Shown: positions 18,001 through 20,585 of the stretch, one piece after another
How the letters are laid out: every line of letters starts with the position of its first letter
Position numbering within the stretch: the stretch's first letter is position 1
Origin: Escherichia coli
GTDB taxonomy: Bacteria > Pseudomonadota > Gammaproteobacteria > Enterobacterales > Enterobacteriaceae
DNA length: 64,000 nt
Reading direction: 5' to 3' (one strand)
NCBI RefSeq assembly: GCF_009931435.1
Contig: NZ_CP043414.1
Program-made: the position numbers

Positions 18001-20585
18001 CTCCATTGCCTCTCACGAAAGGAACTGGACACACTGATCAAGCACGAATTACAACTGATGCTGGCTGAAGGCTTTGACAAGTCCCCTATTTCCGCCAAGG
18101 CCCTGCATATTCGGCTCAAGGCAAAAGGTATCGTTAACGGTGGTTTAAGTACGCTGAGCAGCCTTGAGCGAAAACGCCTAATTGCTGCCTATGTTGATCA
18201 GCAACTTGGCCCGTTGAATCTACGCCCAAAAGAAAAACAGCAATACGTCAACCGCAAAACCCGTCAGGCCTTGCTGGCCAGAAACCAGCAGTTGCAGGCG
18301 GAAGTCAGAGAACTGCAAGACCAACTGGCGCAGAATACCCTATCGTTGATAGAAATTGTCAAAGCGGTAAAAATCAATACGGTTATTCCGGTGGAAAGTC
18401 TGTTGCCAAACATGTAATTCGGGAGTTACACAAGTCGTCATAATGCTGGTTATAATTTTCGGCAAAGGGTATGGACGATTTATTTCCGTCATTCTGTATA
18501 TTGCTTACCTTCCCAAATTTCTCCAACCGTTAGTTGGAGAAATTAGATGAGTCGTAAATCATGAATAAACCCCTTGCTCTATTCGAAAAATGAGCATGGC
18601 AACTTTCAACACCCCCTCTTCTGAGTCCATTATCTCAGAGGGCGTTTTCCACTGTAATGCTCTGTTTGGTTCATTGCACCAGTTTAATGCTGCACTTTCG
18701 TTACCTTCAAAAAGATCAATAGCCTTTTGAAGAACATCATTTTTTGTCAGCATGTTTTACACCTGAAGACGTTTTGAGTGCTTCGATAAGACTACTTCGC
18801 TCTTCCTCTGTCATCCGGGATATGAGCAATGCAAGTTCTGCTGTTGTCTGATCATCACAAAAAGGCACGTTTAACTCTGCCGCCATCCGTCGAATCGTAT
18901 CAATATCGGGGACATGGCGCCCTTTCTCATAATGATTCATACGACTGCTAGCCGATGCGGGATCAAAGCCAACATGAAGAATTGATAATTGCCGTGCCGA
19001 GCAGAGAAAATGAATTCCGGAAACTTTCTCTTGAGCAAGATAAAACACATATTAAGATAAATGAAAAAATAAAAACACTGATTAGGATTGGTAATAAAAA
19101 TATTACAATAAGGCAATGAATTTTAAAAAGGATTTGAAGTTTAATACAGTCATGAAAAAGAGAGGGCAAAGCCGACCCCGCCCTCTCCCTTCATGCACTG
19201 ATAAGCCTCACTAATAGGAGTGTTAGCAGCGCGTACCACTGTATGCTAGACCTGAAAAATATAATCTCAGCCAGTCCCAGATGCAACCTTTAACACTTCA
19301 ACGCAACAAATTAAACAACGAATAGCCACAAACGTGTAGACAGTGCACTGATACGGATAAAAGTAACGCTCCTGAATTGCTCAATCAATGATATATACCC
19401 TGTTTTACTGACATATCTGACAGCGGGTGGATTTCCTTCAATTATTGATATAACACCATACGCACTACATCTGTCTCCACCAGAATATGAGGTGAAATTG
19501 TTGCGCACCGGTTAATCCGGGTGTACTGGTCAAACTGTTTTTACGGTGCGCCTGTTTTATAGCCTTCAGTTGCGCAATGCGTCGACTTCGCATGGTTTTC
19601 CTCATGACTGCCGCTTTATCATTGCGCAATTCGCCGATGTAGTCGGTGCCCCCCGGAAAATCAAACGGTTCTGGTTGTTCTCTGTACTGCTTCAGGGCGT
19701 ATAGTCCGATACCTCAGCAGACGGGTTTTCCCCGGAGCGAGGCCTCTGGGGTTCATAATTAATCGTACAGCCAAAGTACCAAGCGTTCGGCCGGCTGGGC
19801 GGCCGGCTGGGCTTGCTGGTCAGTTTGTTCCAACACACATTAAGCATCTCCAGTCCGCTGGGCAGGCGGTCCGGCAGGCTGGTCAGCTGGTTATTACTCA
19901 CATCAAGCACCTTCAGCCTGACGGGCAGCACCGGCAGATGGATCAGCTGGTTATTACTCACATTAAGCGTCCTCATATAGCCGGGCAGCTCCGGCAGGCT
20001 GCTCATGAGGTTAAAACGCACATCAAGCGTCACCAGCCCGGCGGGCAGCGCCGGCAGGCCGGACAGCTGATTATTACTCACATCAAGCATCACCAACCCG
20101 GCGGGCAGGACCGGCAGGCTGCACAGCCGGTTTCTACTCACATCAAGCTTCTCCAGACTGGCGGGCAGCACCGGCAGGCTGCACAGCTGGTTTTTACACA
20201 CATAAAGATGCTTCAGCCCTGCGGGCAGGACCGGCAGGCTGTCCAGCAAGTTTCTTCTCACATAAAGCTCCTCCAGCCCGGTGGGCAGCTCCAGCCCGGT
20301 GGACCTGAAGAGATTGTTTCCACCCACATTAAGGTGCTTCAGCCCGGCGGGCAGGACAGGCAGGCTGCACAGCCGGTTTCTACTCACATCAAGCTTCTTC
20401 AGCCCGGCGGGCAGGACCGGCAGGCTGTCCAGCAAGTTTCTTCTCACATAAAGCTCCTCCAGCCCGGTGGGCAGGACCGGCAGGCTGCACAGCTGGTTTC
20501 CACTCACATCAAGCTTCTCCAGCCCGGCGGGCAGCTCCGGCAGGCTGGTCAGCATCAGATTTGCCAGTTCTAGTTCCAGTGCTGA

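Follow-up and report, generated by a model that had tools for sequence, protein, structure and literature searches.

Genes and features of the locus

Two overlapping minus-strand ORFs were found in the 64,000-nucleotide stretch of Escherichia coli DNA analysed (hereafter the window), one at 18559–18753, encoding 64 aa, and the other at 18737–19048, which encodes 103 aa when read mechanically. They share 17 nt (18737–18753) in different frames, as the preliminary description had reported, with the DUF2384 frame lying +1 relative to the HTH frame. The shorter ORF is an intact, stand-alone DUF2384 (Xre_MbcA_ParS_C) gene with its own ATG and, by sequence reading, an AGGTG ribosome-binding site 6 nt upstream of it. 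The longer ORF contains the 3′ fragment of a controller HTH gene, a pseudogene at 18737–18973 on the minus strand that retains residues 29–110 minus four (alignments A1 and A2). Next to it, the plus strand carries the 3′ remnant of a divergent VspR-like gene (18974–19119, the last ~48 codons), as aligned to the 186-aa gene of the comparison loci L002 and L003. On the other side lies a convergent ginD-like gene for a GInt recombination accessory protein (17980–18417, plus strand), recognized by homologue comparison and blastn.

The hairpin announced earlier behind the stop codon was recovered at 18516–18544, between the convergent ginD and DUF2384 genes, as a 13-bp perfect inverted repeat (AATTTCTCCAAC...GTTGGAGAAATT) that folds with −21.1 kcal/mol (z = −4.8). 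It is fully conserved in all four aligned loci, is absent in Pectobacterium, and is probably a bidirectional terminator; the terminator scan did not list it because it has no proper T-run. A second, terminator-like hairpin with a T-run was detected by the same scan at 19163–19179 on the minus strand and is conserved in A1. From its position upstream of the remnant of the HTH and DUF2384 genes, it would keep transcripts of the LRR gene from reading through, and it is likely the terminator of the VspR-like gene too. No minus-strand promoter-like site was found between 19160 and 18754, and the DUF2384 gene is probably silent in the window. In intact islands, it would be translated from the controller mRNA by coupling.

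The controller gene and its lesions

The intact controller has 110 aa and matches PDB entries 3lfp (C.Csp231I, residues 9–98; E = 4e-25) and 4o8b (E = 2e-27), and intact HTH relatives match the PADLOC Control_protein profile (E = 1e-24). These matches identify the HTH protein as a C.Csp231I-type controller, a class of ~100-aa HTH regulators of restriction–modification (R-M) with an extended C-terminal helix, and not as the N-domain PF20432 of Xre-RES antitoxins. Controllers of this type occur as ~100-aa proteins far outside the range of the DUF2384 gene. The earlier label of an Xre-type HTH ORF was accurate only in part: HTH gene material is present at 18737–18973, but the 103-aa ORF scores 18.4 bits with HTH_3 (Pfam) against a threshold of 23, and the family is that of C.Csp231I. 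The sub-threshold score arises because only 18737–18973 derives from the HTH gene, the codons at 18974–19048 being antisense to the 3′ end of the VspR-like gene (A1 and blastn).

The locus is indeed degraded, as had been proposed, and sequence comparison places the actual lesions within the HTH gene, as a ~590-bp deletion and a separate 12-bp deletion. The junction of the former lies at 18973/18974 with a 7-bp overlap (A1 columns 637–1232; blastn segments) and corresponds to L003 6596–7184 in intact cassettes; HTH codons 1–28, both operators, the divergent promoters and ~140 VspR-like codons were lost with it. The latter is an in-frame deletion at 18864/18865 on the minus strand (A1 columns 515–526; conservation in A2), which removed the residues LNY(F/L), including the nearly invariant N67 and Y68 (A2). 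The window copy is consequently left without start codon, helices 1–2, promoter and operators, and its last 78 codons remain. The same controller HTH family is represented by another, independent fragment at 23457–23668 on the minus strand, comprising the 5′ 48 codons and 32 bp upstream; it is 96% identical to L002 6577–6752 (blastn), is matched by HMM, and is annotated in L001 as a partial HTH pseudogene. This fragment (23493–23668) was considered as the missing 5′ half of the gene and rejected, since 67 bp of the reference gene are present in both fragments.

Operators and the divergent partner

In intact islands, the 96-bp gap between the controller and the VspR-like gene contains two CTTAG-N5-CTAAG palindromes 19 bp apart. 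Two candidate operators, 34 bp from start to start and 40–90 bp upstream of the HTH start, were found in 82 of the 89 loci with a match (92 loci were fetched). None occurs in the window, even at one mismatch, though they are present in 82 of the 92 related loci, so they have been deleted here. No further controller operators were found elsewhere in the islands, for instance upstream of ginA, at up to one mismatch. The arrangement of two 15-bp 5-N5-5 palindromes with a spacer of ~18–19 bp upstream of the controller's own gene is that of C.Csp231I. However, the half-sites are reversed (CTAAG-N5-CTTAG in C.Csp231I), the partner is a divergent VspR-like gene instead of a restriction enzyme gene, and the window copy lacks residues 1–28, four conserved residues and all operators. 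The neighbours of the controller in GInts are the VspR-like gene and varied defence cargo, and type I R-M genes are nearby only in V. cholerae loci. In V. cholerae, HTH homologues also adjoin Tn7-like tnsABC, a likeness to the ~100-aa Xre regulators of I-F3b Tn7-CRISPR-Cas transposons.

Of 97 HTH ORFs, at least 74 have a VspR-like partner no more than 400 bp away. The 186-aa gene of E. coli and Klebsiella (L002/L003) is homologous to a 199-aa Pectobacterium protein (E = 2e-28) that carries VspR_N and VspR_C in a precomputed, newer Pfam annotation; the domain assignment of the 186-aa gene thus consists of newer Pfam matches on homologues plus pairwise homology. The 186-aa gene gave no match to the local Pfam copy, nor did direct BLASTP match it to the V. 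cholerae homologue. By these domains, the divergent gene of the relatives would resemble VspR, a repressor of the Vibrio cholerae VSP-1 island, from which the window differs in keeping only the last ~48 codons. Mentions of ‘VspR’ in defence papers were set aside as apparently unrelated to the regulator.

In intact islands, the controller would autoregulate and control the divergent VspR-like gene via the two operators, and such a circuit would yield a burst of expression on entering a new host. Experiments have demonstrated an entry burst of this kind for related C proteins and with the Xre regulators of Tn7-CRISPR elements (Petassi 2020; PMC4321490).

The stand-alone DUF2384 gene

The 64-aa protein is identical to WP_000956368.1 of RefSeq, an ‘MbcA/ParS/Xre antitoxin family protein’, and 100% identical to an annotated CDS in L001. 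The Pfam profile PF09722 (Xre_MbcA_ParS_C) is matched over its whole length (positions 2–51 of 51) at 41.9 bits, where the cutoff is 24.5 (E = 1e-10). Since phmmer against PDB sequences gave marginal matches alone (E = 0.25–0.5), a structural comparison was needed. The AlphaFold model (pLDDT 94.9) matched only antitoxins of RES-type toxins in the PDB (TM 0.68–0.83, rmsd 1.1–3.4 Å), superposing on the C-terminal toxin-binding domains of ParS, VPA0769, P. putida Xre, NatR and MbcA, for which the reference complexes are ParS/ParT 6D0H, VPA0769/0770 8GUG, P. putida Xre-RES 6GW6, NatR/NatT 8QNQ and MbcA/MbcT 6FKG. The DUF2384-like tail noticed earlier is therefore a genuine DUF2384 toxin-binding domain, predicted to have the RES-antitoxin fold. 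The protein differs from type II RES-Xre antitoxins in its length, in lacking the N-terminal PF20432, in having no RES gene adjacent or, by an HMM for one RES subfamily, in the window, and in its position behind an unrelated controller gene in a GInt. Likewise, it covers only positions 55–112 of the NCBIfam RES/Xre antitoxin model NF049845 and scores 53.8 bits against a cutoff of 90, compared with 108.8 for the true relative P0154.

Conservation of the gene varies between lineages. Relative to Enterobacter (L014), dN/dS is ~0.09 over a dS of ~0.8–0.96, and all seven residues that are invariant or nearly invariant across the family are kept in the window's protein; on the Pectobacterium branch, dN/dS is ~1–2. 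In at least three independent lineages (L004/L015, L016 and L021) the DUF2384 ORF has decayed beside an intact HTH gene with an unchanged stop codon; L004/L015 have lost the ATG, and in K. grimontii (L016) the DUF2384 body stands in the HTH frame behind the TGA. Judged from these comparisons, the DUF2384 ORF is a real gene that is sometimes conserved and often decayed across relatives. Since most HTH/VspR cassettes have no DUF2384 gene, those of Vibrio and Shewanella among them, the gene is dispensable and could be a drifting relic. The mini-DUF2384 family is narrow (27 clusters, every one ≤74 aa), and short solitary DUF2384 proteins are common (51 of 140 top representatives are ≤85 aa). Neither the 64-aa nor the 107-aa DUF2384 protein is covered by a PADLOC model.

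Search for a RES toxin and origin of the domain

The absence of a RES toxin stated in the preliminary description was confirmed: the gene downstream of the 64-aa ORF is the convergent ginD, and a RES HMM built from 108 Enterobacterales RES toxins, spanning one RES subfamily, detected no RES gene in a six-frame translation of the whole window. The same one-subfamily HMM does detect the RES genes of L093 and L094, and it found none within 7 kb in any of the 92 related loci. A RES target for the 64-aa protein is therefore hypothetical.

The nearest full-length relatives of the 64-aa protein, with 53–55% identity over residues 7–64, are canonical PF20432+PF09722 antitoxins of Enterobacterales with RES directly downstream, PF20432 being the N-domain of true Xre-RES antitoxins. 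The gene may well derive from the C-terminal toxin-binding domain of such an antitoxin. A possible vestige of a res start was also noted behind the DUF2384 stop, where the sequence (TCATGATTTAC, ‘MIY...’) bears a faint likeness to the stretch of L094 in which the antitoxin and RES genes overlap (TCGTGATTTTGTAT, ‘MILY...’).

Two native genes

In the intact relatives, namely E. coli MB64, K. pneumoniae plasmids, Enterobacter and Pectobacterium, HTH and DUF2384 are annotated as two genes, and the two-gene layout with its 17-nt overlap recurs in MB64, K. pneumoniae pSYCC6-1, Enterobacter and Pectobacterium. Because the identical split layout occurs in intact relatives, and the lesions lie elsewhere in the HTH gene, the overlap reads as the native organisation of two separate genes and not as a frameshift. 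A single ancestral ~160-aa gene of Xre-HTH plus DUF2384 (ParS/MbcA type), frameshifted at 18737–18753 and robbed of its RES gene, had been proposed instead. In its favour, HTH precedes DUF2384 as it does in genuine Xre-RES antitoxins (6gw6, for example), antitoxins of this kind are also the closest full-length relatives of the DUF2384 part, and the faint likeness of TCATGATTTAC to TCGTGATTTTGTAT points the same way. However, the shared split contradicts this reading, which we consider almost certainly wrong: no HTH–PF09722 fusion appears among the 120 of 168 HTH homologue clusters listed (sizes ~100–140 aa or shorter), and no fused HTH–DUF2384 protein among the 27 mini-DUF2384 clusters; the HTH is of the C.Csp231I type, where true antitoxins carry PF20432; the mini gene has its own ATG and Shine–Dalgarno (SD) sequence; and in other lineages, where the DUF2384 ORF has decayed, the HTH gene is still whole and its stop codon unchanged. 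A programmed +1 frameshift, or slippage on the A6 run, at GAC AAA AAA TGA would give a ~168-aa controller–DUF2384 fusion beside free controller, and is very improbable. The +1 offset of the DUF2384 frame, the conserved A6 run followed by TGA in the overlap, and the DUF2384 body in the HTH frame past the TGA in K. grimontii would all suit it. No stimulatory SD lies near the slip site, though; re-pairing from AAA to AAT is poor, six A residues are few for transcriptional slippage, and ATG and AGGTG are conserved in intact copies, with the ATG lost in the decayed L004/L015. The A6-TGA is kept even beside dead DUF2384 ORFs and is therefore explained by the ADKK at the HTH C-terminus. For the window, the organisation as two native genes carries little weight beyond correcting an annotation-level misreading, in that two native genes and a deletion had been taken for a frameshifted antitoxin.

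Island context

Very probably, the feature is what decay has left of the regulatory end of a GInt of the Tn6571 family, in the hipA-ydeT hotspot of an E. coli-type chromosome, and its overlapping genes go back to a native operon of two genes, a controller gene and a separate DUF2384 gene. The GInt identity follows from gene order and from Bardaji 2017 (PMC5385486), where GInt denotes a ‘genomic island with three integrases’. In intact islands, ginA, ginB, ginC and ginD are followed by the controller and DUF2384 operon, which is convergent with ginD, then by the VspR-like gene, which is divergent from the operon, and by variable defence cargo. As in GInt/Tn6571, the relatives carry two integrases, a ~788-aa ginC-like and a ~145-aa ginD-like gene (the ginD homologue has 144 aa and follows a 788-aa ginC-like gene), with cargo directly behind ginD and defence cargo in E. 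coli hotspots. The cassette starts right after ginD and a 10-bp repeat lies at the insertion point, in keeping with the GInt traits of cargo behind ginD and short flanking direct repeats (PMC5385486). A term search of that paper gave neither ‘helix-turn-helix’ nor ‘antitoxin’, and the controller/VspR-like/DUF2384 cassette was not found there.

Unlike a complete GInt, the window holds only the left end, ginD and first cargo genes, of which the DUF2384 gene and 78 codons at the end of the controller gene are kept; ginABCD is complete in L002, L003 and L004. Left-end sequence was identified at 17942–18028 (plus strand; blastn to about L002 145–231), and window 18019–18980 corresponds to L002 5620–6643 (blastn). 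The ginD-like gene is accordingly ginD from ~18019 on, its first ~13 codons being left-end sequence, and the join is an internal deletion of ginABC, so the remnant would be unable to move by itself. An ISNCY element was examined as the cause of the truncation and rejected, as the GInt left end still lies between the IS and ginD. Window segments 12000–17971 and 17962–20690 flank L004 8973–21774 (blastn), and their 10-bp overlap (17962–17971) marks the point at which a further, intact GInt of 12.8 kb is present in E. coli R32_14_1F. GInts are known defence carriers, with hipA/ydeT as hotspot #20 (Hochhauser 2023), and the defence and stress gene surroundings described earlier agree with this. 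Between hipA and the fimbrial genes, GInts have inserted one after another in a known defence hotspot and left their debris in layers; the locus itself is an ordinary remnant. The comparison also brings to light a conserved and apparently undescribed cassette in which a C.Csp231I-type controller is combined with two conserved operators and a VspR-like partner; it is widespread in Gammaproteobacteria, at the boundary of the cargo in GInts and Tn7-like elements.

Possible roles of the 64-aa protein

The likeliest role of the 64-aa protein when expressed, which we propose only tentatively, is that of an orphan antitoxin domain, which would bind NAD+-degrading toxins of the RES type encoded elsewhere; failing that, it would have no function. 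Three-part toxin–antitoxin systems with a separate regulator include omega-epsilon-zeta and paaR-paaA-parE. Here, too, one operon encodes a DNA-binding regulator and, as a polypeptide of its own, the putative toxin-binding protein; unlike in those systems, the toxin gene is missing from the controller/DUF2384 operon. On a somewhat unlikely reading, the gene is a fossil without function: the tail end of an Xre-RES operon came to lie next to the controller gene and is now being lost by drift. The independent decay in L004/L015, L016 and L021, the dN/dS of ~1–2 on the Pectobacterium branch, the narrowness of the family, the failure of the one-subfamily RES HMM to find a partner at any of the 92 loci, and the possible res start vestige are consistent with it. 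Against it stand the low dN/dS (~0.09 over dS ~0.9) relative to L014, the intact ORF, ATG and SD, the retention of all family-invariant residues, the confidently predicted fold and the frequency of solitary short DUF2384 proteins.

Rather improbable is a role of the protein as modulator, that is co-factor or anti-repressor, of the controller/VspR-like switch instead of a toxin binder. In Pectobacterium GInts, a different RES-less DUF2384 gene stands directly downstream of each regulator (64 aa for the controller, 107 aa for the VspR-like gene), other solitary DUF2384 genes occur without RES in defence and mobile contexts, and a tyrosine-recombinase survey took DUF2384 as an excisionase-finding profile (PMC8138268). 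However, most controller/VspR cassettes function without a DUF2384 gene, the 64-aa protein is acidic and has no DNA-binding features, and RES toxin binding is the sole documented activity of the domain. A bolder extension of the orphan-antitoxin proposal, to which we give little credence, is that the controller/VspR-like/mini-DUF2384 cassette might serve islands with defence cargo as an entry module, whose co-translated orphan domain disarms the RES NAD+ toxins of the recipient or of rival plasmids. If so, the controller would time expression after transfer, and an anti-addiction or anti-defence factor would aid establishment of the island or plasmid. Solitary DUF2384 proteins that lack a RES partner also emerge as a class from the same comparison.

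Identification of the DUF2384 ORF

On the minus strand of the window, a 64-aa ORF (18559-18753, the mini-DUF2384 gene) and an HTH ORF of 103 aa (18737-19048) lie in different frames and share 17 nt, as the preliminary description had stated. The DUF2384-like tail that it reported was recovered by a Pfam search, in which PF09722 (Xre_MbcA_ParS_C, formerly DUF2384) spans the 64-aa ORF with the whole profile matched at 41.9 bits (gathering cutoff, 24.5 bits), while the proposed Xre profile check did return HTH matches to the 103-aa ORF, all of them sub-threshold. The 64-aa ORF also matched the C-terminal half (positions 55-112 of 112) of the antitoxin model that NCBIfam has for RES/Xre pairs, under the full-length cutoff. 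The AlphaFold model of the protein, built on an alignment of 102 sequences, has a pLDDT of 94.9, and its PDB matches were antitoxins of RES-type toxins only (ParS, VPA0769, P. putida Xre, NatR and MbcA; TM 0.68-0.83). The hairpin noticed past the stop has a 13-bp stem at 18516-18544 (z = -4.8). The RES toxin is indeed absent: the neighbouring gene is convergent, and a RES HMM gave 0 matches in the six-frame translation of the window. Calling the locus degraded, RES-less and antitoxin-like was fair. The protein is identical to RefSeq WP_000956368.1, so the ORF already has a RefSeq annotation.

Two Overlapping Genes in Intact Relatives

The overlap had been read as a frameshift in a single antitoxin gene, which the sequence comparisons do not support, because intact relatives hold two separate genes with the same overlap. 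By DNA search, the region occurs in 73 plasmids and in 264 of 5426 complete E. coli genomes. The identical 17-nt overlap was observed in the E. coli MB64 chromosome, the K. pneumoniae plasmid pSYCC6-1, Enterobacter spp. and Pectobacterium brasiliense, where the annotation lists the HTH regulator (110 aa) and an 'MbcA/ParS/Xre antitoxin family protein' (64 aa) as separate genes. The mini-DUF2384 gene has its own ATG, with AGGTG 6 nt before it. In a search of 5.8 billion proteins, the HTH homologues formed 168 clusters; the 120 listed are 67-140 aa long, with intact members at about 100-112 aa, and PF09722 is absent from all 120. The mini-DUF2384 protein formed only 27 clusters, every one ≤74 aa. 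Several lineages have a decayed DUF2384 ORF beside an intact HTH gene with an unchanged stop codon. The ATG is gone and stops are present in E. coli R32_14_1F and Citrobacter, and the ORF carries several lesions in E. cloacae and a frameshift in K. grimontii. In the K. grimontii locus (L016, 7317-7507), the loss of 1 nt past codon 9 brings the DUF2384 body into the controller frame, with TGA alone between.

The Controller Cassette and Its Parent Island

The HTH-family profile matched the restriction-modification controller C.Csp231I in the PDB (3lfp, E 4e-25) and also the entry 4o8b (E 2e-27), and left the Xre-RES antitoxin chains among the PDB sequences unmatched; PADLOC assigned the HTH protein to 'Control_protein' (E 1e-24). 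C.Csp231I binds two 15-bp palindromes with an 18-bp separation upstream of its own gene (PMC4321490). Among the 92 loci collected, 89 had any operator match, and in 82 of these 89 a CTTAG-N5-CTAAG pair, 34 bp start to start, lies 40-90 bp upstream of the HTH start; the half-site order is opposite to that of the published C.Csp231I operator. The pair is kept from Enterobacteriaceae to Vibrio, Shewanella, Marinomonas and Pseudoalteromonas (e.g., 6747-6761 and 6781-6795 in the intact cassette L002), and loci L040, L045 and L091 have four boxes each. In the Klebsiella copy the HTH gene is 96 bp away from a divergent gene, and the two palindromes fill this gap; a search of the rest of the islands, at up to 1 mismatch, revealed no extra copies. 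The divergent gene encodes 175-199 aa, with Pfam VspR_N and VspR_C in the Pectobacterium, Vibrio and E. coli homologues; the 186-aa E. coli/Klebsiella protein is homologous to carriers of these domains (E 2e-28). Among the 97 HTH ORFs of the collected loci, at least 74 have such a VspR-like partner ≤400 bp away. The controller of an intact island would regulate its own gene and the VspR-like gene via the two operators, and the DUF2384 protein would be made from the controller transcript by translational coupling. The I-F3b Tn7-CRISPR-Cas transposons carry the same ~100-aa C.Csp231I-like regulators, which autoregulate and repress transposon genes, permitting an expression burst when the transposon reaches a new host (Petassi et al. 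2020 preprint); similarly, V. cholerae homologues of the window's HTH adjoin tnsA/tnsB/tniB.

In Enterobacteriaceae, two integrase genes, a ~788-aa gene and a ~145-aa gene precede the controller cassette, which is the ginABCD order of the GInts, genomic islands with three integrases of the Tn6571 family (PMC5385486). GInts are known to carry defence systems at E. coli hotspots (PMC10121019), and the window position is hotspot #20 (hipA-ydeT) of that study. Among the cargo of the relatives' islands are AAA ATPases, retron Ec78/PtuAB and an ABC-three-component system. Directly after the VspR-like gene, locus L005 (4668-4991, minus strand) encodes a second DUF2384 protein that lacks a RES partner, as do L006, L018 and L019. 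In Pectobacterium GInts this ParS-like protein has 107 aa, is 44% identical to the mini-DUF2384 protein and scores 61 bits on NF049845, under the cutoff; given its position, both switch regulators are each followed by a DUF2384 gene there.

Decay of the Island in the Window

Decay was mapped by alignment with intact copies and by blastn. GInt left-end sequence (17942-18028) is joined straight to ginD (from about 18019 onward), indicating that ginABC were deleted. The mini-DUF2384 gene is intact, and the HTH gene persists from codon 29 onward only (18737-18973, minus strand), with a 12-bp deletion at ~18864/18865 that removed four codons (LNYF), two of them for nearly invariant residues. A ~590-bp deletion (junction 18973/18974), common to at least 12 E. 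coli genomes, fuses the HTH gene to a remnant of the VspR-like gene, of which ~48 codons at the 3' end are left (18974-19119, plus strand), so the first 25 codons of the 103-aa HTH ORF are antisense to that remnant; this accounts for the sub-threshold HTH scores of the ORF. No controller operators are left in the window. With a terminator-like hairpin upstream (19179-19163, minus strand), and no minus-strand promoter-like site in a scan from this hairpin to the DUF2384 ORF, the mini-DUF2384 gene is probably silent here. The locus is an ordinary remnant, and the kind of island that it comes from is already known. Its interest is modest and lies in the conservation of the controller/VspR-like cassette and in the puzzle of DUF2384 genes that have no RES partner.

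Origin and Possible Role of the 64-aa Gene

Searched exhaustively with phmmer, 1.84 billion representatives yielded 330 matches to the 64-aa protein. The closest full-length relatives (142-147 aa) combine PF20432 (Xre-like HTH) with PF09722, share 53-55% identity over residues 7-64 and each have a RES toxin gene directly downstream; one passed the NCBIfam antitoxin cutoff, and the RES toxins that accompany them are from a family found across Enterobacterales. The mini gene is thus the exact counterpart of the C-terminal domain of these antitoxins, with the same ...GVYS stop. The ATG ATT TAC past its stop bears a faint resemblance to the overlapping RES start GTG ATT TTG TAT, which is weak evidence.

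Because the sole documented biochemical capacity of a DUF2384 protein is the binding of RES-type toxins, our best guess is a putative orphan antitoxin domain acting in trans; the rival readings are a drifting fossil, a modulator of the regulatory switch and, as an unlikely one, a controller-DUF2384 fusion made by +1 frameshifting. Selection on the gene is mixed: dN/dS is ~0.09 over a dS of ~0.8-0.96 against the Enterobacter copy (L014), and on the Pectobacterium branch it is about 1-2. For the HTH gene, all pairwise comparisons but one (0.61, from six substitutions) give 0.04-0.25. The mini-DUF2384 gene is a real coding sequence that was long maintained, yet is dispensable. Compared with the others, L014 (Enterobacter sp. 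10-1, 7001-7511) is mosaic, with a dS of 0.03-0.13 in the controller versus 0.8-0.96 in the DUF2384 gene, implying that a recombination breakpoint lies in or close to the 17-nt overlap.

Solitary short DUF2384 proteins are common, with 51 of the best 140 representatives among the 330 matches being ≤85 aa, and a RES neighbour was absent from all three of the solitary genes examined. One of the three, a 65-aa gene in an E. coli-type genome (L097/L098, 3513-6362), has a DUF7661 gene on one side and a CBASS-like SMODS + S_4TM pair on the other, and in locus L099 another short one likewise lies behind an unannotated ~129-aa gene; the DUF2384 gene and its preceding gene may form a recurring two-gene unit.

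Repeated Insertion and Neighbouring Elements

E. coli R32_14_1F harbors an extra intact 12.8-kb GInt (L004, 8973-21774), carrying an ABC-three-component system, exactly at window 17962-17971 with a 10-bp overlap. This placement at the remnant's left end shows that the end still serves as an insertion site; it behaves as a live attachment site, with the hotspot growing by tandem accretion. A second, independent controller HTH fragment (23457-23668, minus strand) sits upstream of an ankyrin-repeat gene (24379-26343); it covers 48 codons at the 5' end of the gene and 32 bp in front of them, with 96% identity to intact copies. As the two fragments share 67 bp of the reference gene, the second stems from another copy of the island. 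Beside hipA, a SIR2-like gene (14868-16220, minus strand) was assigned by PADLOC to the candidate defence family PDC-S25 (E 2.5e-82), with weaker matches to ThsA/LmuA/Dsr SIR2 domains. The transposase gene beside the island's left end (16427-17926, minus strand) is ISNCY-family by the annotation of a 99.8%-identical stretch in a related E. coli genome. A 348-aa leucine-rich-repeat ORF (19692-20738, minus strand) consists of ~60-nt tandem units (LPxLPxGLxxLxVxxNxL), and its repeat gives rise to a long antisense ORF (19938-20573); judged from many offset blastn matches to the collected loci L001 and L004, the copy number varies by strain. Between this gene and the second HTH fragment, IS21-type istA/istB (20754-22555, minus strand) break a region common to other E. 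coli strains.
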